In this document: positions 1-11,963 of the stretch, one piece after another
Layout of the letters: every line of letters begins with the position of its first letter
Numbering within the stretch: position 1 is the stretch's first letter
UHGV virus genome: UHGV-0046228
DNA from: a virus
Strand: one strand, 5' to 3'
Length of the DNA stretch: 11,963 bases
Program-made: the position numbers and the translations under genes
The notes under the pieces: generated by a model
Database searches by the model: none
Seen by the model: the letters and a program-made list of their open reading frames with translations, nothing else
Told to the model about the DNA's origin: nothing

Positions 1-385
1 CCGGAACAGCACCGGGGTTCGGCGTCTTCAGCGTGGTCGAGCTGGCAAAAGCACCGGAGCCAACGTTATAGGTGAAGGAGTAAAGCGCGGCGCGGGTTGG
101 CTCAGGGATGCGAACCTTGATCAGCGGGTCGATGGCGCTTGCCACCTTTCGCAGATCTGCCTTAAGCAGGTTGTCACACTCTTTGTCGGTATATCGGTGA
201 CCGCGGCGAATGTCGGTACCAGTGTGCCCATCGCAAACGGTCCAGACGCCGACCACATCCTGATAGGCGTAATAACGCCGACCTTCGAGTCCATCCGCAT
301 TGCCCAGCATTACTGCAGCAATGGTGATGGCTCCGGACCCGCCAACGATGGCACCCACCAGCTTATTCCTCAACGTTGGGTTCAT
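1..385 (-). CDS. SAR endolysin (signal-anchor-release lysozyme, phage 21 R-like), N-terminal 128 codons; C-terminus lies beyond the window start
   Basis: Manual reverse-complement translation from ATG at 385..383: [128 protein letters not shown]. Gly/Ala-rich weakly hydrophobic N-terminal SAR-like segment followed by a lysozyme-like E...D/C...T core; start overlaps the upstream holin by 23 nt in another frame. Absent from the ORF track because no stop lies inside the window. Confidence 0.85.
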
Positions 386-587
386 CTCGGCTCCTGCTGC
401 GGCGGTTGTCTTCGCGGATTTTGAAATAGAGATTTGTCAGATACGTCATTACGGCAATGATGATACCCACCAGCACGCCGATAGCGTTCCACTGCTCGGG
501 GCTGTAGGCATTAAGCATGCCGTTTAGGATGCTCCCGGCTGAAGCGCCATAGGCAGCACCAGTGGTTAGTTTGTCCATGCGATACAT
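363..587 (-). CDS. Class II holin (pinholin, phage 21 S-like) with dual-start motif
   Basis: 74-aa [22 protein letters not shown]...[15 protein letters not shown]; begins Met-Tyr-Arg-Met (two starts separated by a basic residue), two hydrophobic segments, charged C-terminal tail; SD GAGGTGA upstream; immediately precedes the SAR endolysin. Confidence 0.85.
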
Positions 588-621
588 ACTCTCACCTCGC
601 TTTGTGCGAGTGCTGTTGCTA

Positions 622-650
622 GGAATAAAAAAGGCCGCCGAACGGCAGCC
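622..650 (-). terminator. Intrinsic terminator-like hairpin about 35 nt upstream of the holin start
   Basis: Minus-strand reading GGCTGCC-GTTC-GGCGGCC followed by TTTTTTATT; 7-bp GC-rich stem with one G-U pair. Confidence 0.5.
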
Positions 651-848
651 TTGTATTGATTGATAGTTTCCGGAGCTTCTTTCTCGCTAGGAAAGCAAAA
701 AATTAAACAATCCTTAAGAATAGCCAGTTGATGCAAAAAATAATTAGCTTTTCAAATAGTTTTTAGCTGTTACCATTTCCACTAAGTTATGGCTTTACCT
801 CTTTGTGGATAAAAGAAAGACAAGCGGGTATGAGATTGAGTCGTTATT

Positions 849-883
849 GCGGAGAGGGGTGATGTCGTTCTCCGCGTTTTTTT
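849..883 (+). terminator. Plus-strand intrinsic terminator-like hairpin within the Q-to-holin intergenic region
   Basis: GCGGAGA (849-855), 13-nt loop, TCTCCGC (869-875), then G plus seven T (877-883). On the minus strand no U-run follows, so it is orientation-specific for plus-strand transcription. Confidence 0.45.
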
Positions 884-910
884 GGCTCGAAGCGATTTAG
901 GCCACAAAGA

Positions 911-942
911 AATAAAAAAAGCCCAAGGCGTTAACCTCGGGC
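911..942 (-). terminator. tR'-like intrinsic terminator downstream of the late promoter
   Basis: Minus-strand reading GCCCGAGG-loop-CCTTGGGC (8-bp stem with one G-U pair) followed by TTTTTTTATTTCTTT; about 120 nt downstream of the Q stop. Confidence 0.6.
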
Positions 943-959
943 TTGAATTTTTTTGGCTT

Positions 960-1065
960 CGGAACGACTGAACGGATTCCCAGCGTTAGAGATGAATCTA
1001 TCCAGTTTTTCCGCGAAATGCAATACCTATTTCCTATATATTTTCAACATTAGGGAAAATTATTT
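960..1065 (-). promoter_or_regulatory. Inferred late promoter (pR'-like) and Q-utilisation region
   Basis: AT-rich non-coding stretch between the Q stop (1066-1068) and the tR'-like terminator; minus strand has TTGAAA (1047..1042) and adjacent TATATA (1040..1035), but no clean -35/17 bp/-10 pair was found. Placement rests on position. Confidence 0.35.
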
Positions 1066-1875
1066 TCATCTCGTTACTTTTGAGAGAATGGAATCAGCCA
1101 TAGACTCCTGTTTATGGCATTCGGCGACCAACTCCTCAAATAGCGGCTGAAGTTGCTCATATGCCGCCGTTTTCTTTATCTCCGCAACAGTATTAACGCC
1201 CTCAATTACCGTTGAGAACTTAAGCCTGGCGTAACCTCTACCACCGCAGCGGTCGCAGGCTTTCATTACTGGAACGCCCTGGCGATCGCTTTCTGCCTTG
1301 TCCAGCACCTTACCTTTGCCATGGCAGCGACACGAATTGCTGATAACGCCTTTTCCGTTACACGGCTTGCACTTAACTCGCACCACCTCACGCGCCTGTG
1401 TCCAGCTCTCCCAGTCGCTTGGGCGAACGGCACGCGACATTTTCGACCAGTAAGGCGGTTTCCCCCATGGGTATGAGACCTTGTTGGTAAACACTTGCGC
1501 CTCTGTAAATCCGCCACCATCACAGCAATCACATTTTCGAGTGCTGGCAGCACTTCTTGAATAATCCTGGTATGCAAAAGCGCAGAGAACCTTAAGCACG
1601 CCTGACCGAGCTGATTCATCGAGTTCAGACAGTGCTCTGAATTTACCTGATAACTTACGTGCCTGCTCATAGAGTCTCTCCAGTGCTATATCTGGGCTGC
1701 TAATGCCGATTTTCGAGAGGTAAAGATCGAAACCAAACCCGCACTTGTGGCCAGCAAGGCCAAGCGCCGCCATAACGTCAGTGCCGGTGAGACTGTCTGA
1801 TGCGGTTGCGCGAGGAGAGTCACTGAACATCGGTGATTTAGGCGCAAAGTATTTAGCGATTGATTCGAGGTTCAT
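1066..1875 (-). CDS. Late-gene antiterminator Q-like protein
   Basis: 269-aa ORF directly upstream of the late promoter/terminator and lysis genes and downstream of nin genes; C-terminal half carries paired Cys motifs (KCKPCNGKG...CRCHGKG, CDRCGGRG) typical of Zn-binding Q-family antiterminators. Family assignment is from recall. Confidence 0.7.
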   Translation of the reverse strand: MNLESIAKYFAPKSPMFSDSPRATASDSLTGTDVMAALGLAGHKCGFGFDLYLSKIGISSPDIALERLYEQARKLSGKFRALSELDESARSGVLKVLCAFAYQDYSRSAASTRKCDCCDGGGFTEAQVFTNKVSYPWGKPPYWSKMSRAVRPSDWESWTQAREVVRVKCKPCNGKGVISNSCRCHGKGKVLDKAESDRQGVPVMKACDRCGGRGYARLKFSTVIEGVNTVAEIKKTAAYEQLQPLFEELVAECHKQESMADSILSKVTR

Positions 1876-1991
1876 TATGCGGCTTCCTTCTGTGGCTGGT
1901 GGGTTTTGGTCTGGCTGTGCTTTACTATTGGCGGCATGCTGGCGCGCTTAACGCTTTCGGCCTGGTATCGGGTTATCTCGTCTCTGGTCAT
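1875..1991 (-). CDS. Small hypothetical protein (38 aa), translationally coupled between lar and Q
   Basis: Manual translation MTRDEITRYQAESVKRASMPPIVKHSQTKTHQPQKEAA; ATG at 1991..1989 preceded by GGAGG with a 6-nt spacer; ATGA overlap with the Lar stop and TAATG overlap with the Q start. Not in the ORF track (below size cutoff). Confidence 0.4.
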   Translation of the reverse strand: MTRDEITRYQAESVKRASMPPIVKHSQTKTHQPQKEAA

Positions 1992-2194
1992 GATGGCCTC
2001 CGATTCCAGGCGCGAATTGCATCGCGCTTTGTTGGATAGGTGTCAGTTATCGGCTTAATCAAGCATTGCTTTGTTGAACAACCGGCGTAGACACCATCAC
2101 CATCAGAAAAAAGTTCTGCGCCGCCGCCACAGAACGGACACTCAAGCAGAAAAGCCCAATGAGGTAGCTTGAGATCGAATATCATTGGTTTCAT
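1988..2194 (-). CDS. Lar-family restriction alleviation protein (anti-restriction)
   Basis: 68-aa ORF with CPFCGG...AGCSTKQC zinc-ribbon-like cysteine pairs and C-terminal AIRAWNRR, matching my recollection of Lar/RalR-family proteins of Rac-type prophages; ATGA overlap with the ninG stop. Confidence 0.55.
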   Translation of the reverse strand: MKPMIFDLKLPHWAFLLECPFCGGGAELFSDGDGVYAGCSTKQCLIKPITDTYPTKRDAIRAWNRRPS

Positions 2195-2832
2195 GCTGCC
2201 TCCCGCTGTTTCAGTGCTTTGAGCTTGTCGCGGTACTCATCCCGGATCCGGATGAAGTCTTCACGGCGGTAGTTGGTCATTTCGTGGGGGCCGTTGAGCC
2301 AGTCGACGTATCCCTGACCGTAACGAGCGACCAACCCAGCTTCGTATTGCTGCGCCACGGTCGCCTCTTTGGCGGTGTACTTGCCAGCTCCGGCATTACA
2401 GGATTTGCACTGCTTATGGGCGTTGCGTTCTTCAAAGCGCAGTTCAGGGTAAGCACCTACTGTCTTGAAATGGCCGCAATCCCACTGGCCACCATGCAGA
2501 TCAGGCGGATTGGTCTCGCCGCAGCTGATGCATGGCAAATCGGCGTCGCGCGCACGGATAAAGGCGTTGAAAGCTTTCTGAGCCTGAGCCTTGTAGTGTC
2601 CGTCTGGCCTGAGCTCGTCCAGCCGCTCCGTGCGGCGTTTGCGCCCGTCCTTCTCAGCCTCGTTTTGCTCCTTGATGCGCTTAGCCGCGTCTTTCACCTT
2701 CTCCTTCTTGCGTTCTTCCATTGCGAGGATTGCGCCGTGTTCCGGGCAGCACCAGCGGATCCGGATGTCGTGGAATTTCGGCACGAAGTATTCACCGCAT
2801 ACTTTGCACTTACGGCGGGATGGTTTACGCAT
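2191..2832 (-). CDS. ninG: NinG (Rap) recombination-associated protein
   Basis: Translation from the internal Met ([16 protein letters not shown]...) parallels lambda NinG as I recall it ([17 protein letters not shown], ERNxHKQC motifs). The track start at 2910 would overlap the upstream phosphatase by 85 nt, so ATG 2832..2830 is preferred. Confidence 0.85.
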
Positions 2833-3493
2833 GGGCACCACCTTGAACCTGTACCAGCGTGAGGCTTCCGCAGAACACGGCCCCCGTATCCATGTACATC
2901 TGGTTGGCATACTTCAGGGGCTGGCGCGCAGGGGTGTGGCCGAAGATAAACAGATCAGCACCAGCTATCGGCGAGACAATGCCGTCCTGAGCGTCGCTAA
3001 CCCGTTCACGATTCCAGATGACCATGTCTTTCGGGACCGGCTTGTCGAACGCATATTCGTTATGCGGGTAGTCAGCGTGGCAGATAACGATTTTACGTTC
3101 AGCGGTAACCAGCTCGATGACGAATGGCAGGCTGGCCGATTTATGAACCAGAGCCTTAGCCAGCACCTCTTTGTCATAGTCGAGATTGAAGAACCAACCG
3201 CCACCGTTTACCAGCCAGTGATTGACGTTCCCATACTCCGATAGCCCATCAATCATCATCTGCTCATGGTTTCCGCGCACCGCCCGGAACCACGGCATAG
3301 TAATAAGCTCCAGGCACTCGACGTTTTCCGCGCCGCGGTCAACAAGGTCACCAACCGATATCAGCAAATCATGCGCCGGGTCGAACGAAACTTTTTCGAG
3401 CTCATTCATCAGCAGCGTGTAGCACCCATGCAGATCGCCGACGACGAAGATATTGCGCCAGTCAGCGCCATTAATGCGTTGATACATGCTCAT
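2825..3493 (-). CDS. Serine/threonine protein phosphatase (lambda PPase / NinI-like metallophosphatase)
   Basis: Metallophosphatase motifs GDLHG, GDLVDRG, GNHE and strong co-linearity with lambda PPase ([35 protein letters not shown]). Start taken at ATG 3493..3491 (MSMYQRING...) with AGGAG 9 nt upstream; ATGA overlap with the ninE stop. Confidence 0.9.
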
Positions 3494-3660
3494 GCGGATT
3501 TTCTCCTCGCTGCGAGACGCAGCCATTTCTGATCCACCAGGCGGGCGGTGTAATCTTTCAGGGTCGGAATGTCGGACGGCTTAATCGCTGGCTTACGCTT
3601 GCGGCGCACCGGAACGCGGAAGATTTCGTTTGTGATGACGCGAGCGAGAGGGCTAGCCAT
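3490..3660 (-). CDS. ninE: NinE-like small basic protein (56 aa)
   Basis: Manual translation [56 protein letters not shown]; resembles my recollection of NinE of lambda/DLP12 (RKRKP...WLR...ARR); TAATG overlap with the ninB stop. Not in the ORF track. Confidence 0.6.
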
Positions 3661-4097
3661 TACGCAACCCTCCCGAAGTAATCACCTGAGTAGCGAACTT
3701 CACGGAGTTGCACGCCGTTTTGCACAGCAAATGCCTGGCTGTATTCGATGAGACTGGTCATGCGACGGATGCCCATCTTCGCAGTGCTTTCCCGGATGGC
3801 GCAGAACTCCCCTTCCAGACCCGGCACCACTTCACCAGGCTTACCGGTGGCAATGGCATGGCCTGAGACATACAGGACTTTCCATGAAGCGAGGTCGCGC
3901 GACTTGCCAGCCCATTGCAATTGCTTCGCTGTATCGCCACAGAGAGCGTGGAAGAGGTCGTTTTGGGCGAGAGTGCGGTCAGCCTCAGAAAACTTCACCA
4001 CGAGCGGCAGAGCGTCGTTAACGGGCAGCTTCCTGATGTAGTCGATGAGGTTATCGCGAACGCGTTCGTCGCGGAGGTAGAAAACAGGCTGTTTCAT
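3660..4097 (-). CDS. ninB: NinB (Orf) recombination mediator
   Basis: Translation from internal Met (MKQPVFYLRDE...) is 145 aa and co-linear with lambda NinB as recalled (QN..L...GD......W.G, SWK core); GGAGGTGG SD 6 nt upstream of ATG 4097..4095. Confidence 0.85.
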   Translation of the reverse strand: MKQPVFYLRDERVRDNLIDYIRKLPVNDALPLVVKFSEADRTLAQNDLFHALCGDTAKQLQWAGKSRDLASWKVLYVSGHAIATGKPGEVVPGLEGEFCAIRESTAKMGIRRMTSLIEYSQAFAVQNGVQLREVRYSGDYFGRVA

Positions 4098-4129
4098 ACG
4101 CCACCTCCGAGAGGTAACGCAGAATACAG

Positions 4130-4243
4130 AAAATCGCAGGTGCATTTCTGCATCTGTGACAAGGTGAGAAGTTCATATTGTGGTCGCATTTAAGTCCCCT
4201 TAAATGCGAAGAAGTCTGCCAGGGTTGTTCAGGCCGCTGGCAG
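4130..4243 (-). other. Structured RNA element: three consecutive hairpins ending in a U-rich tract (tR2-like terminator, leader or small RNA)
   Basis: Minus strand: TCTGCCAG-14 nt loop-CTGGCAGA; CGCATTTAAG-GGGA-CTTAAATGCG (10-bp perfect stem); CAGATGCA-GAAA-TGCACCTG (GNRA-type loop) followed by CGATTTTCTGTATTCTG. Confidence 0.35.
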
Positions 4244-4247
4244 ATTT

Positions 4248-4276
4248 ATTATGGCTCGTTGATAGTGTTTTATCAA
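4248..4276 (-). promoter_or_regulatory. Candidate sigma70 promoter upstream of the hairpin element and ninB
   Basis: Minus strand TTGATA (4276..4271), 17-nt spacer AAACACTATCAACGAGC, CATAAT (4253..4248). Confidence 0.45.
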
Positions 4277-4317
4277 ACGTTGCTTGACGTTTAGTTATGC
4301 GTCGAATGGGTTCTGCA

Positions 4318-5070
4318 TCACTTCACCTTCCACTGCGGTGCTGCTGCAATCATCGCGCGGTATGCAGCCTGCATGTCGTTGTCATCATCGTCTGTGTACG
4401 GAGCCGAATCCCATGCTGCACGCATATCCGGAGTAAGCTCAACCGGCACCATCACCCAACCATCAGGAATCACCGGAGAGTTGCCACCCTGAACAGTAGG
4501 CATATCCGGACCTTTGCGAATCGCCCTGGCAAGATCGATTTGGTCGTCGTACAACCAGTCACCTGTTTGCGGATGATTGGCTTCTGCCAATTGTGCAGCC
4601 CACTCCAGGCCGTCTTTGTGTCCTTGCAGATAGTCCAGCGGTAACTCATCACTATTACTTACAGGTTCGGCCTGAAGCATGGCGGCGCGATAGGCGTTCC
4701 AGCCGACAGCTTTTCCGTGTTCAAACGCGCTGTCAAAGTCATCATCAATTTCCATCGCAGCGGGCACAGATACCGGCGCTGGCGGGGCGGTGTAGAGCGG
4801 CATTACCTCAATATTGAAGATATCCCCCTCGCTTGGACACGCCTCTGCGCTACCGTAAACCCAAGGGTGAACGACTCCGTTACGCTTGTTGATTAATCTG
4901 TGCGCCCACGCCACAGGCTCCGCTTCGAGCGATGCCAGCGCGATACGCGCATTATTAATCAGGAGGCTATCAGCAGGAGATAAAACAACATGAGCGTTAC
5001 CCTCCGCATCAATTTCAGAATTCGTAATTTTTCTGAACAGCTTTGCCAGTTCTCTGGTAATAGTGCTCAT
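4318..5070 (-). CDS. Hypothetical phage protein (250 aa), acidic
   Basis: Long ORF with ATG at 5070..5068, GGAG 8 nt upstream, ATGA overlap with the upstream ORF stop; acidic runs (EIDDDFD, YTDDDDNDM); no family recognised. Confidence 0.7.
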   Translation of the reverse strand: MSTITRELAKLFRKITNSEIDAEGNAHVVLSPADSLLINNARIALASLEAEPVAWAHRLINKRNGVVHPWVYGSAEACPSEGDIFNIEVMPLYTAPPAPVSVPAAMEIDDDFDSAFEHGKAVGWNAYRAAMLQAEPVSNSDELPLDYLQGHKDGLEWAAQLAEANHPQTGDWLYDDQIDLARAIRKGPDMPTVQGGNSPVIPDGWVMVPVELTPDMRAAWDSAPYTDDDDNDMQAAYRAMIAAAPQWKVK

Positions 5071-5345
5071 GGGCGAATCTCCGTCCTGCCACCAAGTAAG
5101 CGGATTGCCACTCGTTCCCGGAAGGTAAGCGGTCGATGGTGTCCGCGGGCATTAACAATTTCAGGCTTTCCATTAGGCGGATAATTGACCCTGACCGATT
5201 GACCATCTAGCGCGTGAGAAGCCTCGAGTAGTGCTGACTTTAAGTGCGCAGGGCACTCTTTCTGCACCCGCTCGCCGTCTGAAATGACACCTGCAATCCC
5301 CTGAAGCATGCTGGCTAAATTGCTGAGATAATTTTTCACATTCAC
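5067..5345 (-). CDS. Hypothetical protein (about 90 aa); start uncertain
   Basis: ORF-track start at 5345 is a GTG only 1 nt after AAGGAG; GTG at 5339..5337 has better spacing (7 nt). Stop overlaps the start of the 250-aa ORF (ATGA). Confidence 0.5.
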   Translation of the reverse strand: MNVKNYLSNLASMLQGIAGVISDGERVQKECPAHLKSALLEASHALDGQSVRVNYPPNGKPEIVNARGHHRPLTFRERVAIRLLGGRTEIRP

Positions 5346-5692
5346 TCTCCTTTACCGGTGCCATAGGCAGATAAGCACTCTTCAAATCCAGCCTGATTAT
5401 CCGTTTGACCTAAACTGAAGCCATGCTGAAGACCATGACGAAATGCGCTATCTTGCAATTTATCTGCGCTATCGAGCTTCGCTTCCAGTTCAGCAATCCG
5501 CTCCTCATACCGAGCGCCAACGGAAACGGCTTTATGGAAGGCTTCGCACCATTTGGACGATTGCGCCTGCATCTTCTCCAGCTCATCCAGCAGCTCCAGC
5601 ACGTCGCGAGTGGGAACCATGAAGTTCGGAATGAAGTTATCTTTCGCTTTCTCTGCTGTTAGGCGCAGCGCCTGTTTGTCGATGTTGCTCAT
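5342..5692 (-). CDS. Hypothetical protein (116 aa) with central coiled-coil-like segment
   Basis: ATG 5692..5690 overlapping the stop of the upstream ORF (ATGA); charged heptad-like region ERIAELEAKLDSADKLQD; no family recognised. Confidence 0.6.
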   Translation of the reverse strand: MSNIDKQALRLTAEKAKDNFIPNFMVPTRDVLELLDELEKMQAQSSKWCEAFHKAVSVGARYEERIAELEAKLDSADKLQDSAFRHGLQHGFSLGQTDNQAGFEECLSAYGTGKGE

Positions 5693-5949
5693 TGGGCGGC
5701 TCCTTCTGTGCGATACATCATGATTGTCAGATCGCCTTTAGTCGCCAGGCGCACCGTTGTTCCTGGTTCGATGCTGGACAGGTCAAACGCATCGTAAAAT
5801 TCGTTTACTGCCTTCTGTCTACGAGATAGCTTTCTACGCTTATCCCACTGCTTTAGCGCAATGGAGATAAACCACTGGCCCGTTTTGAACATGATGAATA
5901 ACCACCCCATCAGAGCGAGACCAGTGTTTAGAATGTCCAGAATGCTCAT
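5689..5949 (-). CDS. Hypothetical small membrane protein (86 aa)
   Basis: ATG 5949..5947 with AAGGAG 7 nt upstream; N-terminal hydrophobic span LALMGWLFIMF followed by a basic stretch. Confidence 0.6.
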   Translation of the reverse strand: MSILDILNTGLALMGWLFIMFKTGQWFISIALKQWDKRRKLSRRQKAVNEFYDAFDLSSIEPGTTVRLATKGDLTIMMYRTEGAAQ

Positions 5950-6041
5950 GACTGCACTCCTTTGCGAAGCTGTGCGGCGATGTCTTCGAGTACTCCATCA
6001 GCGAAGGAGCGATCAAAATCCCCCTCTGGCGCATCAGCCAT
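5946..6041 (-). CDS. Small acidic hypothetical protein (31 aa), translationally coupled
   Basis: Manual translation MADAPEGDFDRSFADGVLEDIAAQLRKGVQS; stop TGA overlaps the ATG of the 86-aa ORF (TCATGA); no obvious SD, so it rests on coupling only. Confidence 0.3.
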   Translation of the reverse strand: MADAPEGDFDRSFADGVLEDIAAQLRKGVQS

Positions 6042-6044
6042 AAA

Positions 6045-6569
6045 CTATGTAGATGTGAGAATCATCCGTGCGATGTCTGCCGAGATCTTCGCAGTATCAT
6101 CAATAAAACCAGCTTCCCAGGCAGCCAGCATTCTGTTAGACACAAAGTAAGCGCCCTCCTTGCGTGCTTCAGTCTTCACTTCAGCCAAGAAAGCGTCGGT
6201 GGCTGTGGTTCGCGGCATCCTTCCATCTATTGCGCAGATATACGCATCAGATAGTTCACCCTGCTCGCCGTCAAACACGTAGCAACTCTGTACGATAAAT
6301 TTATTCAGCCCCGCATTCTCCGCCGCCAGCTCCCTGCACTTGCTCTCGGCGTTAGCGAGCTGTACTGCCATGTCTGTGACTTCGGCTTCAAGTTTTTCAG
6401 CATATTCAATCAGGAGATCGATTCTTTCCGGCGTTACGGTTTTAACGTATTTGCAAATCGATGACGCATAATTATCATCCTGGAGTGTGCCAGCCAGGCC
6501 ATTACAAAATTTGCGGTTCCCTTTTGTCGCCTTGATATCGGCGATGATTTTTTTAACATCTGGTTTCAT
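6045..6569 (-). CDS. Hypothetical phage protein (174 aa) with coiled-coil-like centre
   Basis: Preferred start ATG 6569..6567 (MKPDVKKIIADIK...) making an ATGA overlap with the ren stop; the track's longer N-terminus would overlap ren. Confidence 0.6.
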   Translation of the reverse strand: MKPDVKKIIADIKATKGNRKFCNGLAGTLQDDNYASSICKYVKTVTPERIDLLIEYAEKLEAEVTDMAVQLANAESKCRELAAENAGLNKFIVQSCYVFDGEQGELSDAYICAIDGRMPRTTATDAFLAEVKTEARKEGAYFVSNRMLAAWEAGFIDDTAKISADIARMILTST

Positions 6570-6865
6570 GCTGACACCCTCCCGTAAAACGCCAGTACAC
6601 GCTGCATCGCCGGACTGTTTCGGCACTCCTGAAATATTCCGTTGGTGCAGCTACGCGCGGTACCAGCCTGCTCTTCCGGCGTAGCCAGGCGATAAGTCAC
6701 CGTTCGCCAGACCTTGCTCACCCGGATAATTTTTCGAGACTTTTCCAGATCGATAGCGTTCTTCGTGATGCAGTTGATGGTCATGCCGCACTCTGTGGCC
6801 ACATCCTTCGCGGTGAAGGTCCGGTGCGTTTCGAGATAACGCAGAATTGCCTGCTTGCCTTTCAT
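6566..6865 (-). CDS. ren: Ren-like protein (lambda Ren, resistance to Rex exclusion)
   Basis: 99-aa translation MKGKQAILRYLETHRTFTAKDVA...KVWRTVTYRLATPEE...FQECRNSPAMQRVLAFYG is co-linear with lambda Ren as recalled; ATGA overlap with the P stop; sits directly after P as in lambda. Confidence 0.8.
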   Translation of the reverse strand: MKGKQAILRYLETHRTFTAKDVATECGMTINCITKNAIDLEKSRKIIRVSKVWRTVTYRLATPEEQAGTARSCTNGIFQECRNSPAMQRVLAFYGRVSA

Positions 6866-7656
6866 TGAATAAGCCCTCTCTCTTTCCCGCGCTGATACTC
6901 TTCCCAAAGCCATTGGGCCGGGGTGAGAGCGCCGAGAGTCGCCGCATTTGGCATGCACCCGAAGCTTTTTCCTTCCGGGTGATAACCGGCCTGACGGCTC
7001 ACGTGATTTGTCGGGATCACTTCATCAGAATTCTCGAGCGCCAGGACGGGGGATGGTATTTTTTCCCCACCAGCAACTTTCAGCGCCCATTCCTCAAGTT
7101 TTTTTGACGCGTATTTTTCAGTTTCAGCCTCGCTCAGCTGGCGCTGGTACATCGCTCTGCGCGTATCGGTCACAATCCAGTACATGACGTCATGAGACCA
7201 CGGGAAAGCTTCTGCTCCGCCGGTATGCAGCCCTTTTTCGCGGCTATACCGATGGAACTCATTCATCACATCAGCCAGGCCAATGCCAAGTACCGTGCCG
7301 CTATCCTTGCACCATTTGATGAATTGCCCCGGAGAAGGCCAGAAGGGTGATTCACTGGCGCGGGCATGCCGTACACCTGCGGAAAGTTGTTCGCGGGTGC
7401 GGATCCCATTCTCTGAAAACGCTGCGATCCACTGACGCTTTGCCGTTTTCTCGTCTGCGTCAGTTTTCAGGTTTGTCTGCGTAGACGCAGGGAAAATCTG
7501 CTTCAGCTGCCGAAAGAGAGAATCAACGAGGCTTTCCGCTTCGGGATTTATTACCTTCTGCTGGTCGGCGTTTCCGTTAGCCATTCTGGATAGCAGTGCC
7601 CCGTCACGCCCGTTAACTGCCTGCACAAGTTGGTTATTCACAGGAAGTCCTCCCAT
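6862..7656 (-). CDS. P: Replication protein P (DnaB helicase loader)
   Basis: 264 aa, co-linear with lambda P as recalled (FPAS, RRQWIAAFSENGIRTREQ, PFWPSPGQFIKWC, YWIVT); start overlaps the 3' end of the O-like gene. Confidence 0.9.
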   Translation of the reverse strand: MGGLPVNNQLVQAVNGRDGALLSRMANGNADQQKVINPEAESLVDSLFRQLKQIFPASTQTNLKTDADEKTAKRQWIAAFSENGIRTREQLSAGVRHARASESPFWPSPGQFIKWCKDSGTVLGIGLADVMNEFHRYSREKGLHTGGAEAFPWSHDVMYWIVTDTRRAMYQRQLSEAETEKYASKKLEEWALKVAGGEKIPSPVLALENSDEVIPTNHVSRQAGYHPEGKSFGCMPNAATLGALTPAQWLWEEYQRGKERGLIQ

Positions 7657-8372
7657 CCCTCGCGGCTGTTCCAGTGAGGCGTTTCCTGCTCAGCACGTCC
7701 ACGTTTAGCCAGCGGGTTAACCCTGGCATTCCGGATCCAGACTCTGAAAGCCGAATTCCAGTCGATTAGCTGCGTGCCACGGGAAAGGTGATAGTCCCGG
7801 AAGTTCAGCAGCTCAGTTTCAATGCTCACCCCCTTCTCGGCAGCCATAGCAATGTGATCTGCCGACGGCTTAAACAGGGGCGGGAATGGAATCTCCCCGT
7901 TTGGTGAAATCCCGATCCGCCGCTTAGCGGCTTCGCTCATAAAACCATCGCGCCCAGAGAGAGAGTTAGGTTCAGTGACTGGTTCAAAAGAGTGACTGGT
8001 TCTGGTGCCATCTGGTGGCACAGGGGGTGTGCAATCAGATGGCATAGGGTGTGCTTCTTCGTGGCATACCCCTGTGCAATTTAATGGCATAGGGGTGGCA
8101 TCTAATTTCAGGTAATACACATTTGACGTGTTACCTTTTCCGTTGTTGACGCCAACACGGTTCTCACGCCTGATAAGCCCCATTTCTTCAAGCGCATCAA
8201 TATGGTTACGAACAGCCGTTCTGCTGCATTCGCATTGGTCGGCGATATGTTGATACGAAGGCCAGCATTCGCCTTTATCGTTGGCGTTATCGGCCAACTT
8301 AATCAGGACGAGCTTACGCAGTGAGTTTCCCACTTTGACCCCCATTGCTTTCGCCATAAGTGACATGCTCAC
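7638..8372 (-). CDS. Replication initiator, O-like (N-terminal winged-HTH, ori iterons in the coding sequence, C-terminal P-interaction-like domain)
   Basis: 244-aa ORF; N-terminal HTH-like segment (SRTAVRNHIDALEEMGLIRRE); iteron repeats fall in a Pro/Thr-rich linker; followed by P. GTG at 8372 with GGAGGT 5 nt upstream, alternative ATG at 8366. Confidence 0.8.
   Translation of the reverse strand: MSMSLMAKAMGVKVGNSLRKLVLIKLADNANDKGECWPSYQHIADQCECSRTAVRNHIDALEEMGLIRRENRVGVNNGKGNTSNVYYLKLDATPMPLNCTGVCHEEAHPMPSDCTPPVPPDGTRTSHSFEPVTEPNSLSGRDGFMSEAAKRRIGISPNGEIPFPPLFKPSADHIAMAAEKGVSIETELLNFRDYHLSRGTQLIDWNSAFRVWIRNARVNPLAKRGRAEQETPHWNSREGWEDFL
8003..8100. repeat. Origin-of-replication iterons inside the O-like gene
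   Basis: Four related units spaced about 22 bp: TGGCACAGGGGGTGTGC, TGGCATAGGGTGTGC, TGGCATACCCCTGTGC, TGGCATAGGGGTGGCA, preceded by inverted repeat GTGCCA...TGGCAC and flanked by an AT-rich tract (8101-8130). Confidence 0.6.
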
Positions 8373-8389
8373 GTGCTACCTCCGGTTTG

Positions 8390-8418
8390 TTTACTCTCTT
8401 CGATTTACTTGGCATAAT
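8390..8418 (+). promoter_or_regulatory. Candidate promoter for an OOP-like antisense RNA
   Basis: Plus strand TTTACT (8390-8395), 17-nt spacer, CATAAT (8413-8418), in the intergenic region between the YdaT-like gene and the O-like gene, pointing opposite to them. Confidence 0.3.
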
Positions 8419-8423
8419 TGCCT

Positions 8424-8500
8424 CGCAATTGACTGACGTTTATTGCACCAGAAAGCTGTTGGTGTTCGAGCACCACAGCTTTCGCCATTTCTGTTGTTCT
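8424..8500 (+). ncRNA. Candidate OOP-like short antisense RNA (about 70 nt)
   Basis: Predicted start about 7 nt after CATAAT; ends at a 13-bp hairpin (GAAAGCTGTTGGTG / CACCACAGCTTTC, 8451-8483, one bulged T, 6-nt loop) followed by T-rich GCCATTTCTGTTGTTCTC, abutting the YdaT-like stop. Confidence 0.3.
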
Positions 8501-9042
8501 CACATAACCCCCAGCATCGATGTCACCATCGTCATCAGCGGCCCTACCTGCTCCGGCATGAGGCGAAACAATGACGCTATGCCCTCGCTTACCTCCTTCA
8601 TTTTCTGGTGCTCAGGCGCGTTCAGGAGAACGGCTTGCTTTGCTTCTGAACATTCCTTCATGGCAGATGCGATCAGCGACATGGTGTCGTTCTGCTGCGC
8701 CAGGCGTGTACGAAACTCAACAGGAAGAACAGACATGATTGCCGGGGTCAGTTCTCTAACGTTCTCGCGGTACTGATCGGAGTCGACGCGGTTATCCAGA
8801 AAGCGCAAAGGATTCTGGCGAGCCCTGCTGATGTCTTGCAGGAAGCTGACGGCGGTACCGCCCTGCTCCCGGTATTCGTTGATGATCAGCGCTGACACTA
8901 CGTCCTGATTGTCCAGGGACGACGACCATGCACGGACCGCATCGCGGATTTTGTCGTGACCTGGCTCCGCCTTAGGTTGAGCGCGGTTTATCATCGCTCC
9001 CGGGTGTATTCCGGTATTGTGTTGATACGCAAGTGAATGCAT
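8500..9042 (-). CDS. YdaT-like protein (Rac-type; occupies the CII position)
   Basis: 180-aa ORF downstream of the cro-like gene; segment IINEYREQGG...ELTPAIMSVLPVEFRTRL parallels E. coli YdaT as recalled; AAGGGA SD 5 nt upstream of ATG 9042..9040. Confidence 0.65.
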   Translation of the reverse strand: MHSLAYQHNTGIHPGAMINRAQPKAEPGHDKIRDAVRAWSSSLDNQDVVSALIINEYREQGGTAVSFLQDISRARQNPLRFLDNRVDSDQYRENVRELTPAIMSVLPVEFRTRLAQQNDTMSLIASAMKECSEAKQAVLLNAPEHQKMKEVSEGIASLFRLMPEQVGPLMTMVTSMLGVM

Positions 9043-9072
9043 TGCTTTCCCTTTCGTGGTTAGAGCCGCCGG

Positions 9073-9294
9073 TTAGGCGGCAAAGATACCTGGATATAGA
9101 ACTTCGCGAGGAAGTCCGGTTACTTCTTCGTATTTACGCATTTTTGTTACTGGAAGGCTGCCACCTCGCTTTTTAAGCATATTGATGGCCTGAGGCGTTA
9201 CGCCGACCTTTTCAGCAAGCACCTTTTGAGAGCCGCCCACTGCATTAATGGCTTTCTCAAGCGGGGTGCTGGCGTTGGATTTTTTGTTGATCAT
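9073..9294 (-). CDS. Cro-like DNA-binding protein (YdaS / Cro-CI HTH family)
   Basis: 73-aa ORF with HTH segment GGSQKVLAEKVGVTPQAINMLKKRG; divergent from the repressor gene; GGAGC SD 5 nt upstream. Confidence 0.8.
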   Translation of the reverse strand: MINKKSNASTPLEKAINAVGGSQKVLAEKVGVTPQAINMLKKRGGSLPVTKMRKYEEVTGLPREVLYPGIFAA

Positions 9295-9314
9295 GTTTTG
9301 CTCCGCTCATGTGT

Positions 9315-9386
9315 AATCAACACCATGTTAATTCATGGCGTGGATTAAATCAACATTATGGTGATGGAAAAAATCCACATGTTGTT
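9315..9386. promoter_or_regulatory. Divergent operator/promoter region (OR-like) between cro-like and cI genes
   Basis: Three related sites: AATCAACAccaTGTTAATT (9315-9333), AATCAACAttaTGGTGAT (9348-9365), AATCCACAtgTTGTTT (9372-9387). Candidate pR on the minus strand: TTGATT (9353..9348), 17 nt, TAACAT (9330..9325), overlapping sites 2 and 1. Confidence 0.5.
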
Positions 9387-9411
9387 TACCATGCATGGAG
9401 CGGAGGGTTTT

Positions 9412-10131
9412 ATGAGCAGCATTTCTGAAAGAATTAAATTTTTACTGGCAAGGGAAGGCTTGAAGCAGCGGGATTTGGCTGAGGCTTTGTCGACTAGCCC
9501 ACAGACCGTCAACAACTGGATAAAAAGAGACGCGTTAAGTCGTGAGGCGGCGCAACAAATATCTGAAAAATTCGGTTATTCTCTTGACTGGTTATTAAAT
9601 GGAGAGGGTTCTCCAAAGAAGGATCTGGAGAGCAACATCCCGCCAGAGTCTGAGTGGGGAACTGTCGACGCTTGGGACAAAAATACCCCCCTACCTGACG
9701 ATGAGGTGGAAGTACCGTTTCTGAAGGATATCGAGTTTGCGTGTGGTGATGGGCGTGTTCATAGCGAAGATCATAACGGCTTTAAACTGAGGTTCTCCAA
9801 GGCAACGCTTCGCCGGGTAGGAGCTAACACAGATGGGTCTGGCGTTCTGTGTTTCCCGGCAACCGGTGACAGCATGGAGCCAATGATTCCAGATGGAACC
9901 ACTGTGGCTGTGGATACAAATAACAAACGCGTTGTCGATGGAAAACTTTACGCTATTGGACAAGGCGATGGTGGTGAAGGGCAACTAAAAAGAATTAAGC
10001 AGCTCTACAGGAAACCAGGCGGAAAGCTAATTATCCGCAGCTACAACAATGAGGCCTACCCTGATGAAGAAGCTGACATTGATGATGTTGAGATAATCGG
10101 CCGCCTCTTCTGGTACTCGGTATTGCTGTAG
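9412..10131 (+). CDS. CI-type prophage repressor (N-terminal HTH, C-terminal S24 LexA-like autopeptidase)
   Basis: Start at ATG 9412 (MSSISERIKF...) with GGAGG 5 nt upstream; HTH LKQRDLAEALSTSPQTVNNWIKR; S24 catalytic motifs GDSMEP (Ser) and LKRIK (Lys). Confidence 0.9.
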   Translation: MSSISERIKFLLAREGLKQRDLAEALSTSPQTVNNWIKRDALSREAAQQISEKFGYSLDWLLNGEGSPKKDLESNIPPESEWGTVDAWDKNTPLPDDEVEVPFLKDIEFACGDGRVHSEDHNGFKLRFSKATLRRVGANTDGSGVLCFPATGDSMEPMIPDGTTVAVDTNNKRVVDGKLYAIGQGDGGEGQLKRIKQLYRKPGGKLIIRSYNNEAYPDEEADIDDVEIIGRLFWYSVLL

Positions 10132-10235
10132 CGGTGGCCTGAAGAGACGTTTGGTTAAGGCCAGCAACGGATCACAACAAACACATGGGGCGGCGGATTA
10201 AGGGTGATGGAGAATCGAAATAAGTTGAGGTCAAC

Positions 10236-10391
10236 ATGAACACGTTCAGCATAATCGCGATACCTTTTTTTGCCCTTTCAGTGGTTCTGTTGACTCTTGG
10301 CGCTACCAGGAAGAACCAAGCCAGCTTCATCGTTGGCGGCGTGTTTATGGCGTCATGCGTGGTTAATGCCATTATCGGCATGTCTCTTTGA
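10236..10391 (+). CDS. Small two-helix membrane peptide (51 aa), immediately downstream of cI
   Basis: Manual translation MNTFSIIAIPFFALSVVLLTLGATRKNQASFIVGGVFMASCVVNAIIGMSL; two hydrophobic spans separated by RKNQ; GAGG SD 5 nt upstream; no convincing terminator between cI and this ORF. Confidence 0.5.
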   Translation: MNTFSIIAIPFFALSVVLLTLGATRKNQASFIVGGVFMASCVVNAIIGMSL

Positions 10392-10583
10392 GCGCTATGA
10401 GATCAGGCATCCTCGTTACTTTGTCATGTGTGACAGCCTGGTATGCACTCTGCGAGCTTTGATGTGGTTTACCACTTTAATAGTCACCGTATCACTAAAC
10501 TGATTAGCTTTACTCATACTCTTGTGGATTCGCTATTTCTGATGTCAATGCAAAAAAATACTAAGGAAACAAAAAGGATACTT

Positions 10584-10850
10584 ATGTCAGATAACACTAT
10601 TAAAATCATACCTCAGCACATGACCGCCACATCAGTTCTTATTACGCCTGATCGTGCTGAAACAATCATTACTTTTCACCGCCATGAATTTGAGCATCAC
10701 ATGCAGTCTGATGAGCAAGGAAAGAATAGCTTCCAAGTAAAAGTTGAGTTGACCCCTAACATGTCAGTCTCAATGAGCCCGGATCAAGCTGTTGCATTAG
10801 TAAAATCATTACAGGTAGCTCTCAGGGATAATGGGCTATGGAAAGACTGA
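10584..10850 (+). CDS. Hypothetical protein (88 aa), first gene of the AT-rich module
   Basis: Preferred start ATG 10584 (MSDNTIKIIPQHM...) with AAGGA 5 nt upstream; the longer track ORF (from 10443) lacks an SD. His-rich segment FHRHEFEHHMQ; stop overlaps the next gene's start by 13 nt. Confidence 0.5.
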   Translation: MSDNTIKIIPQHMTATSVLITPDRAETIITFHRHEFEHHMQSDEQGKNSFQVKVELTPNMSVSMSPDQAVALVKSLQVALRDNGLWKD

Positions 10851-11488
10851 AGCCAGTTTCTTCAGTTCAACCTACCTCAGGAACAACATCATCAGTTCTT
10901 CCAAGTATTATAGTTAGTGCAACCCTAGCAGCGACAACCGTTTCTCCTTATGGGGATCCATCTCAGTACCAAAGTATTGGTATTGATGCTAAGGTATCAA
11001 ATAGAGTTTCATACGCCATGGACGAAACGGGTTTGCGCCCAAGTAAGGAAGATGTAGCGATGAAGAGTGATACCCTGGAGGTAAGCGTGAGCGGAATGTC
11101 CAGAGAAGAACTTGACGCAAAGCTTTCACAAAACAAATCAGAGGTAGAGTCTATTGCTGCGGAAATGCGTCGCGAATCAGCTGACTTTAAAACCTATTAT
11201 ACTCAGCAATTTTCTTCTATTGAGAGAGGTATTGCTGAAATTAAAGGTGAAATCGGCGGTTTGAAAACGGGACTTACAACGACTCAGTGGGCGATGGCCG
11301 TTGGCTTGACTTTAGTTACTGTGATTCTGTCTGGCGTGATGTTAGCCTCAAGTTGGATTATCTCCGGCAATGACAAGTCACCATCAGTAACCAGCCCGGC
11401 TCCAATTATAATACAGGTACCGACACAGCAACCATTAACGAGCGCTCCAACTAACCAATCGTCATCACAACAAGCTCCTAAGCAATAA
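10838..11488 (+). CDS. Coiled-coil protein with C-terminal transmembrane anchor and Ser/Thr/Pro/Gln-rich tail (216 aa)
   Basis: Charged heptad-like region (SREELDAKLSQNKSEVESIAAEMRRESADFKTYY...ERGIAEIKGEIGGLKTGL), a single ~23-residue hydrophobic span (WAMAVGLTLVTVILSGVMLASSWII) and a low-complexity tail; AT-rich codon usage unlike the flanking phage genes; intrinsic terminator directly after the stop. Confidence 0.6.
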   Translation: MERLKPVSSVQPTSGTTSSVLPSIIVSATLAATTVSPYGDPSQYQSIGIDAKVSNRVSYAMDETGLRPSKEDVAMKSDTLEVSVSGMSREELDAKLSQNKSEVESIAAEMRRESADFKTYYTQQFSSIERGIAEIKGEIGGLKTGLTTTQWAMAVGLTLVTVILSGVMLASSWIISGNDKSPSVTSPAPIIIQVPTQQPLTSAPTNQSSSQQAPKQ

Positions 11489-11490
11489 AT

Positions 11491-11517
11491 AAACCCGGCC
11501 ACCGCGCCGGGTTTTTA
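11491..11517 (+). terminator. Rho-independent terminator after the AT-rich module
   Basis: AAACCCGGC-CACCGC-GCCGGGTTTTT: 6-bp GC stem extendable by three A-U pairs, T5 run, 3 nt after the TAA stop. Confidence 0.7.
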
Positions 11518-11963
11518 CTGCCCTACTCTTCCCTCAGCATCAGCACATCCAGTGCCAGCTCTACTGCCAAACAACCATCACCAAAAACAAAACGTAAAAT
11601 AAATATACTTTAAGTTCATTGACTTACATTTAAATGAACTATTGCCAAATTAAAAATGTCCTTTTGGTTCTTTACATTGATGAACCATTAGTCAATTTTC
11701 ATCTCATCCAAACAACAACGTTGGCGCCGGTGATAGGTAACAACGCTCCGTTAGCCGCGATAAGGCAAAGGTGAAGAGATGATCCGCGAAGAAGCCAAGC
11801 CTGCATGGCGTAGTTTTTGGTTAAAGGTCGTTCCGTTTTTGGTTGCTGTCCTTTTTTTTAGCTTCGCTTGCTGGGGTGGAAAATGAGCAATCACGCCCTT
11901 CCTTCCCTGATTTACTGCCTGCTCGTTTGAGGCGTACTCTGGGACGTATGGGTTTTACAAATT

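Follow-up and report, generated by a model that had tools for sequence, protein, structure and literature searches.

HK97 genes 49 and 48 in a mobile cassette behind the phage repressor: a candidate membrane-anchored exclusion system of Enterobacterales prophages

The interval between the phage genes cI and N is a frequent site for accessory loci, or morons, as illustrated by rexAB and bstA (PMC7067206). Exclusion genes that are expressed in the lysogen are known from three sites, represented by rexAB of lambda, sieA of P22 and gene 15 of HK97 (PMC7067206, PMC3594210). The product of the last, gp15, is an inner-membrane superinfection exclusion protein that is encoded by a moron and derived from the host protein YebO (PMC3594210). 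The present analysis concerns an AT-rich cassette directly downstream of cI in the virus genome UHGV-0046228; the window referred to below is the whole stretch of this DNA that was analyzed, with a length of 11,963 nucleotides. The cassette carries HK97 genes 49 and 48, for a small soluble protein (gp49) and a predicted membrane protein (gp48), preceded by a gene for a 51-residue membrane peptide. Gp49 and gp48 are tentatively proposed, with a probability of about 0.4, to act as a lysogen-expressed, membrane-anchored exclusion or abortive-infection system.

Although HK97 is a model phage, no function has been assigned to the genes of its rexAB slot, and the gene for the 51-residue peptide is missing from its record. 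The other two have been public for years as hypothetical genes of HK97, with Gp49 and Gp48 deposited as unnamed products. What is new here is the definition of the protein family, the rule of a constant partner, the recurrence of the pair in three slots and the independent origin of the 51-residue gene.

Position and mobility of the cassette

The cassette occupies positions 10134-11515 on the plus strand, beginning 3 nucleotides past the cI stop codon and ending at a terminator, with sharp ends. Three co-oriented open reading frames after the repressor had been described in an initial annotation made from the letters alone, and all are present: 10236-10391 (51 residues), 10443-10850 (135 residues as the longest frame, with the 88-residue middle protein of the annotation corresponding to a start at 10584) and 10838-11488 (216 residues). 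In HK97 and in E. coli prophages the order is likewise cI, the 51-residue gene, gp49, gp48, terminator and N. The region had been described as richer in AT than its flanks, and its guanine plus cytosine (GC) content is indeed 44.4%, compared with 52.1% for positions 1-10133; the lowest value of any segment of equal length elsewhere is 47.4%, above that of the cassette.

The proteins had been treated as unfamiliar sequences, but they are the Gp49 and Gp48 of HK97. The span 10134-11515 is 99.6-99.7% identical in DNA to HK97, where it takes in genes 49 and 48, and to PDP110P1, with HK97 itself at 99.6%. HK225 is 96.3% identical over a longer stretch that includes cI. The cassette was found in prophages of 52 of 5,426 complete E. 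coli genomes, at an identity of at least 99.7% and with ends that are always alike. It stands behind at least three types of repressor, which are the HK97 cI, a 235-residue repressor of the LexA family and the phi80-type cI that is found here and in HK225.

The right flank at 11492-11942 is 85-94% identical to several Klebsiella phages, and Klebsiella phage ST15-VIM1phi2.1 has a version of the module at the same place with a protein identity of 36%. The module is thus swapped for other versions of itself while the flanks are conserved, and the junctions fall at the cI stop codon and the terminator. The latter is an intrinsic terminator at 11491-11514 on the plus strand, in which UUUUU follows a GC-rich stem of 8 bp, with a folding energy of -18.4 kcal/mol. 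Similarity to HK97 and the E. coli prophages stops at 11515, and similarity to the Klebsiella phages with a diverged module starts at 11492; since the one begins where the other ends, the terminator itself is taken as the right-hand recombination junction. The gene order in relatives, with the cassette between cI and N, the sharp ends, the low GC content and the several types of cI support the earlier proposal that the cassette is a horizontally exchanged accessory element in the rexAB position of lambda.

A moron may be defined as an insert that is absent from related phages and deviates in GC content from its neighbors (Juhala et al. 2000, as quoted in PMC3594210); phi80 has a different gene in the slot, and the composition differs as given above. 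When a promoter and a terminator of its own are also asked of a moron, the terminator is seen here, and no promoter was found in a scan of 10132-10583. The occupant of the slot after cI in phi80 (JX871397, 33588-34454) is annotated as a 288-residue "protein 40A (acetate kinase superfamily domain)", another uncharacterized protein, which is unrelated to the genes of the cassette.

The initial annotation had noted no convincing terminator within the cassette and a strong one at its end. A scan from the cI stop (10131) to the end of gp48 agrees, giving only two weak terminator-like hairpins, at 10366-10381 and 11284-11304, with no good run of T after either. A scan of the plus strand over the same range gave no sigma-70-like promoter, with the hunt directed at 10132-10583, and an alignment of the upstream regions of relatives was uninformative. 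Since no such promoter was found in 10132-10583, expression of the cassette may depend on read-through from pRM, and the cI promoter is presumed to be the origin of this transcription. Copies that lie outside the immunity region would require a promoter of their own, though a hunt for it gave no convincing site.

The gp48 family, its partners and the 51-residue gene

Gp48 is encoded at 10838-11488 on the plus strand, is 100% identical to HK97 Gp48 (PHROG 5820, E=1e-68), and is predicted to be a tail-anchored coiled-coil protein of the inner membrane. Its 216 residues include one strong hydrophobic span at about 150-173, preceded by a predicted long helix at 89-142 and followed by a tail in which Ser, Thr, Pro and Gln make up 60% of the residues. 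In an AlphaFold2 model, residues 1-88 are disordered, the helix at 89-142 has a predicted local distance difference test score (pLDDT) of 85-90, a transmembrane helix covers 148-177 and the tail is again disordered. Hydropathy and the model therefore agree with the earlier description of a coiled-coil protein with one C-terminal span and a tail rich in these four residues. A moderately hydrophobic segment at residues 21-36 was considered as a first transmembrane helix and rejected, given that it is missing in most members of the family, rich in Ser and Thr, and not modeled as helical.

A word-indexed search for gp48 returned 11 clusters, and a profile search of 1.84 billion representatives returned 203 clusters at E<=0.001, of which 107 were at E<=1e-10. 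The proteins among the matches listed are 91-365 residues in length, save for two large coiled-coil proteins that match weakly. Named relatives come from Escherichia, Citrobacter, Klebsiella, Kosakonia, Yersinia, Xenorhabdus, Morganella and Proteus, and all are labeled hypothetical. The family amounts to about 200 clusters in prophages of Enterobacterales and appears to be confined to prophages; a member is present in only 11 of 50,697 phage records.

Alignments of the family reveal a common architecture, in which a membrane-proximal half is conserved and the N-terminus is not. The N-terminal part is variable and disordered over 40-150 residues, and is followed by a strongly conserved helix with the consensus SREELDAKLxxNKAEVxAVAxxMRxEMAxWRE. 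Next comes a coiled-coil stalk of varying length, often with repeats of the KIDGxxxSLNA type. The single transmembrane helix is entered at a nearly invariant Gln, usually with Trp after it. The tail beyond the helix is rich in Pro, Gln and Ala, often includes (AP)n runs and a strand resembling P-I-I-I-Q-V-P, and has a nearly invariant Pro.

Proline-rich linkers of the (AP)n type are typical of periplasmic spacers. Gp48 has no N-terminal signal sequence, and the N-termini of most members are highly polar. From these features and the (AP)n tail we infer an orientation with the N-terminus in the cytoplasm and the C-terminus outside, as predicted from sequence. Near-identical prophage copies (L048, L050, L051 and L053) vary in one respect only, the count of Ala-Pro repeats in the tail, from about 7 to 10, which looks like slippage-type variation in the length of the presumed periplasmic spacer.

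Gp49 is encoded at 10584-10850 on the plus strand, and is a soluble protein for which beta strands and a C-terminal helix are predicted (PHROG 26809, E=1e-68). The start at 10584, giving 88 residues, was chosen because all homologues have 88 residues, the HK97 and RefSeq annotations agree, and an AAGGA ribosome-binding site precedes the ATG. The only PADLOC match of the three proteins, a weak one to the family PDC-S52 (E=0.0035), was set aside, as it covers residues 18-86 of the over-long frame of 135 residues and begins upstream of this start. The reading frames of gp49 and gp48 overlap by 13 nucleotides at 10838-10850 on the plus strand (ATGGAAAGACTGA), as read directly in the sequence and as the initial annotation had it. 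An overlap of the same length is found in K. michiganensis and in Klebsiella phage ST15-VIM1phi2.1. This arrangement suggests that translation of gp49 and gp48 is coupled.

For every gp48 relative that was examined, a small open reading frame ends at or overlaps the start of the gp48-like gene. At least four types of partner can be told apart. The first is the gp49 type, with 88-99 residues. The second, of about 84-108 residues, has in common an I-T/S-F strand and a C-terminal helix, and is tied weakly to gp49 by hhalign (probability 55%, E=1e-4). The third has a CxxC...CxxC motif and 118-131 residues, and the fourth, as found in HK542, has 144-165 residues. Judged by eye, each type of partner occurs with its own kind of gp48 N-terminus, which is the pattern that would be expected if the two proteins bind each other.

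The initial annotation called the 88-residue protein rich in His; it has 5 His in 88 residues, so that the enrichment is mild, although the residues are clustered in the sequence HRHEFEHH. This cluster contains an HExxH motif, HEFEH, at residues 34-38 (positions 10683-10697). All seven proteins of the gp49 type have H34, E35 and F36, and six of them also have H38. An assignment as a zincin metalloprotease, such as an ImmA-like protein, was rejected, given that no peptidase match was found, the motif is missing in the other types of partner and the region is modeled as a beta strand. The motif may reflect metal binding or chance.

The pair of a partner and a gp48-like gene recurs in three places. 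It lies directly downstream of, and in the same orientation as, a cI-type repressor in HK97, HK225 and E. coli prophages with three types of cI, as well as in K. michiganensis, Y. intermedia, Kosakonia and two Klebsiella phages. In HK542, which has a lambda-like cI, the pair is exactly in the place of rexAB in lambda. More diverged viral loci were found with an alignment of 9 sequences as the query, and the pair is next to a repressor in 11 of the 19 viral-contig loci examined.

The second and third places are illustrated here by one locus each. In one (L042), the pair lies between a gene with an SLT domain, which from its position is read as an ejection-protein gene, and an Arc/Mnt-type repressor with a KilA-N/P22_AR_C antirepressor, an interval that is the counterpart of the sieA interval of P22. 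In the other (L058), the pair is found on the opposite strand among tail genes, at a site that resembles the moron site of HK97 gene 15 in the tail operon.

The gene for the 51-residue peptide lies at 10236-10391 on the plus strand, with a GAGG ribosome-binding site 5 nucleotides upstream. As the initial annotation had it, the peptide has two hydrophobic helices, predicted to be transmembrane, which are joined by a TRKNQ loop (Kyte-Doolittle values of up to 2.36 in a 19-residue window). Its homologues form 36 clusters, nearly all of 51 residues and with 67-100% identity, and 15 positions are invariant among 16 aligned sequences. The ratio of nonsynonymous to synonymous divergence (pN/pS) is 0.16-0.23 in comparison with chromosomal copies from Atlantibacter and Lelliottia, with synonymous sites saturated, and the DNA similarity to the chromosomal copies is restricted to the reading frame. 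The ribosome-binding site, the constant length of homologues, the pN/pS ratio and the end of similarity at the ends of the frame therefore mark it as a genuine gene. RefSeq annotates it as WP_001091427.1 in some genomes. It is also present, unannotated, in HK97 (AF069529, 28009-28161). In HK225 (JQ086371, 33025-33177), the same place is annotated as two minus-strand frames, HK225_045 and HK225_046, one of which is flagged "poor ribosome-binding site"; these calls are probably wrong, given that the plus-strand frame is under purifying selection.

The distribution of this gene differs from that of the pair. The relatives in Atlantibacter and Lelliottia are in ordinary chromosomal surroundings, with either pmrD and lysE or a RIO1 kinase gene and yceI close by. 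Among the 50,697 phage records, tblastn found the gene in the HK97-type cassette only. The K. michiganensis module passes straight from the repressor to the gp49 homologue, and no 51-residue gene was found among annotated or called genes between the repressor and the pair in Kosakonia, HK542 and ST15-VIM1phi2.1. In the window, a spacer of 192 nucleotides separates the gene from gp49. Judged by its distribution, the 51-residue gene is a separate, host-derived passenger, and not part of the conserved pair. The cassette had been presented as one coherent module of three genes; the conserved unit is instead the pair of a partner and a gp48-like gene, to which the 51-residue gene was added independently.

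Proposed function and competing explanations

The tentative proposal of exclusion draws mainly on a division of the pair into a variable part suited to recognition and a conserved part suited to output, together with the three slots. The cassette would be a mobile lysogenic-conversion element behind cI, and its transcription would most likely start at the repressor promoters and run through, as that of rexAB does in lambda. Gp48 would be held in the inner membrane by its C-terminal helix, such that the short proline-rich tail with the conserved P-I-I-I-Q-V-P strand faces the periplasm. The coiled-coil stalk, the conserved head helix (SREELDAKLxQNKAEV..AAEMRRE) and the variable, disordered N-terminus would be in the cytoplasm. 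Gp49 would be made by coupled translation and would bind the variable N-terminus of gp48. Exclusion would then take place at the cytoplasmic face of the inner membrane, with the variable partner and N-terminus responsible for specificity. Action would come from the conserved coiled-coil and membrane part, through a block to genome entry or through permeabilization of the membrane, resulting in abortive infection. The 51-residue peptide, as a captured small membrane protein of the host, may act independently, in the manner of HK97 gp15. The sensor plus membrane effector that the initial annotation considered plausible, and a role in defense, are putative.

Several results weigh against this proposal. 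Its main weakness lies in the negative outcome of the searches for homology to defense proteins, for a catalytic or pore domain and for published experiments. Scans of the three proteins with Pfam, NCBIfam, PADLOC and PHROGs gave only PHROGs of unknown function and coiled-coil noise. PADLOC-DB v2.0.0 gave no defense match; 70 gp48 relatives had scattered coiled-coil hits, and 22 partners had none. Sequence-profile searches of the PDB gave no match, and neither these nor the family searches found a catalytic or pore domain in gp49 or gp48. The proteins are not included among the Tai systems and the DefensePredictor supplements, and no literature on expression or a phenotype of the cassette was found in searchable papers. 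The AlphaFold2 models have low confidence, with a mean pLDDT of 51.6 for gp48 and 59.5 for gp49. Position by itself is no proof of defense, given that the same slots hold morons with other functions. Moreover, the location between cI and pL is seen in relatives only, as pL and OL are not visible in the window.

Comparison with the known exclusion proteins of these slots was likewise negative. With RexA as the query, tblastn of the window found nothing, and hhalign gave a probability of 0.1% for the partner family and 0.3% for the gp48 family; with RexB, tblastn again found nothing and hhalign gave 0.3%. The hhalign probability was 1.0% with SieA and 0.1% with SieB. Because the tests for RexA and RexB homology both failed, the cassette is, by homology, not a Rex system, and nor is it SieA or SieB. 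The initial annotation, which recognized no RexA, RexB or SieB, was correct on this point, and SieA can be added to its list.

The alternative that survives best, though unlikely, is lysogenic conversion unrelated to defense, in which the pair alters envelope physiology, stress tolerance, division or colonization to the benefit of the lysogen. The evidence from position and mobility is the same for this explanation as for exclusion, the functions of known morons are diverse (PMC3594210), and the lack of defense homology would be no surprise. The family of the 51-residue peptide, which is mostly chromosomal and found beside housekeeping and envelope genes, also fits. Recurrence of the pair specifically in the rexAB, sieA and tail-moron slots is harder to account for in this way, as is the rapid diversification of partner and N-terminus around a conserved core, a pattern expected of conflict systems. 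The apparent confinement of the family to prophages also counts against this explanation.

An accessory function internal to the phage is improbable. The pair would modulate induction, the decision between lysis and lysogeny, the anchoring of a replication complex or the timing of lysis, which would explain its tight linkage to the immunity region in most loci. A coiled coil followed by a C-terminal transmembrane helix also recalls the lysis-associated proteins of the XhlA type. The same cassette is found, however, behind at least three unrelated types of cI and with different replication modules, and some copies of the pair are far from the immunity region. Most lambdoid phages do without the pair, as the 11 members in 50,697 phage records indicate, and phi80 has an unrelated gene in the slot.

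Quite improbable, too, is an addiction module akin to a toxin-antitoxin system, in which gp48 would be a membrane toxin that is curbed by gp49, such that the prophage is stabilized; this explanation overlaps with abortive infection. A small upstream gene that overlaps a larger one by 13 nucleotides, as in the window and in the two Klebsiella relatives examined, is a suitable arrangement, and the second product is a predicted membrane protein whose partner is always present. Nonetheless, neither gene matched any toxin or antitoxin family in Pfam, NCBIfam or PADLOC, and a single transmembrane helix attached to a long soluble coiled coil is untypical of a membrane toxin. Family scans found no DNA-binding domain in the partner, such as would be used for autoregulation.

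The least probable explanation is the one first proposed, an obligate system of all three genes: E. coli prophages, HK97, HK225 and PDP110P1 do carry the genes together, as one block of more than 99% identity, but the pair without the 51-residue gene in K. michiganensis and seemingly in Kosakonia, HK542 and ST15-VIM1phi2.1, the 51-residue gene on its own in chromosomal, non-prophage contexts and in no phage record outside the HK97-type cassette, and the 192-nucleotide spacer all speak against it.

The exclusion proposal can be extended to a more speculative and rather doubtful one, that the gp48 family is the shared membrane platform of an unrecognized class of exclusion systems in Enterobacterales prophages. 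In this extension, a tail-anchored coiled coil reminiscent of SNARE proteins would carry a swappable small subunit and a variable N-terminus that jointly recognize components of an incoming phage at the inner membrane, and the core would respond by closing the entry route or collapsing the membrane. The 51-residue peptide would then be a second exclusion factor, independent of the first and recruited from the host, parallel to gp15.

In short, the family provides a testable lead, with a conserved membrane-anchored coiled-coil core, interchangeable partners and three classical exclusion slots. If the pair does exclude phages, it would represent a defense architecture without an enzyme or known domain, and position alone would suffice for mining the slot next to the repressor. 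Otherwise, the pair would be a case in which position is a poor guide to function. The lead is a solid one in a model phage and cheap to test, and one that would not surprise a specialist in lambdoid phages.

Prophage context and likeness to known systems

The window comes from a phi80-like prophage and spans its early region, with 98% identity to phi80 over 56% of positions 1-9300. The operators OR1, OR2 and OR3 of phi80 are identical in the window at 9315-9390, and the immunity is therefore of phi80 type. The cI repressor gene lies at 9412-10131 on the plus strand, and its product has the domains Peptidase_S24, Phage_CI_repr and HTH_3. The longest frame for cI is 9358-10131, of 257 residues, and starts upstream of pRM. 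Since the phi80 annotation places pRM over OR3, a start at 9412 (MSSISERIK) is likely, and the true protein probably has 239 residues, near the 236 annotated for phi80. The C-terminal part of cI, past about 9956, follows HK225 and not phi80.

A Ren homologue, as the initial annotation had noted, is encoded at 6581-6865 on the minus strand, with 48% identity to lambda Ren over 95 residues. Ren is carried although the prophage has no rexAB, and its presence has no weight for the function of the cassette, because nothing in the cassette is Rex-like. The genes in the positions of Cro (9073-9294) and CII (8500-9042), both on the minus strand, match the Pfam families YdaS_toxin and YdaT_toxin. These names are misleading here, given that position and the phi80 annotation identify the genes as Cro-like and CII regulators.

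Past the cassette, a search of 11516-11963 for the phi80 OL operators found none, and neither pL nor OL can be made out up to the end of the window. An AT-rich part of this flank holds an inverted repeat at 11612-11637 (GTTCATT-N12-AATGAAC) that does not match the phi80 operators. A small open reading frame at 11779-11886 on the plus strand encodes 35 residues (MIREEAKPAWRSFWLKVVPFLVAVLFFSFACWGGK) with one hydrophobic helix. It has the same position as a hypothetical coding sequence of 53 residues in Klebsiella phage ST15-VIM1phi2.1, of which it may be a truncated form.

Among described systems, the cassette is the same as that of HK97 Gp49/Gp48 (PHROG 26809/5820), from which it differs in nothing and which is found here behind a phi80-type cI. 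The closest counterpart of known function is rexA-rexB of lambda, an abortive-infection pair by which the lysogen excludes T4 rII as well as other phages. It shares the slot, an arrangement of two co-oriented genes transcribed (here probably) from the promoters of the repressor, and a terminator before pL (PMC7067206). Both pairs combine one soluble with one membrane protein, and both are exchangeable between lambdoid phages. The two systems are unrelated in sequence, however; RexA is a cytoplasmic sensor of about 279 residues, RexB has four transmembrane helices, in contrast to the one C-terminal helix and coiled coil of gp48, and the order of sizes is reversed, with the small soluble gene first in the gp49/gp48 pair. 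SieA of P22, which is encoded beside mnt and blocks injection, is, like gp48 by prediction, an inner-membrane protein of the lysogen, and one branch of the gp48 family is found in the equivalent slot. SieA has no homology to gp48 and acts alone, whereas gp48 relatives are always found with a partner.

The Pfam family CCDC90-like (PF07798, formerly DUF1640) resembles gp48 in its coiled coil and C-terminal transmembrane helix. The gp48 of the window scores 12.6 bits, below the cut-off of 33.5, and 22 of 70 gp48 relatives match at E<=0.01, with sub-threshold or weak matches of which the best has E=2e-7. The match rests on the generic coiled coil, and the family has no known function in bacteria, so that it says nothing on mechanism. 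DicB of the Qin prophage, an unrelated protein, is a product of the immunity region that targets entry factors of the inner membrane from the cytoplasm, and reportedly blocks entry of lambda DNA through ManYZ (bioRxiv 10.1101/708461); its likeness to gp49/gp48 is conceptual only.

The 51-residue peptide has its own counterpart in HK97 gp15. Gp15 belongs to another family, has a promoter of its own and is encoded in the tail operon. Like the 51-residue peptide, it is a small membrane protein of the same phage, with homologues that are mostly chromosomal in Enterobacteriaceae and a gene that lies in an AT-rich insert (PMC3594210).

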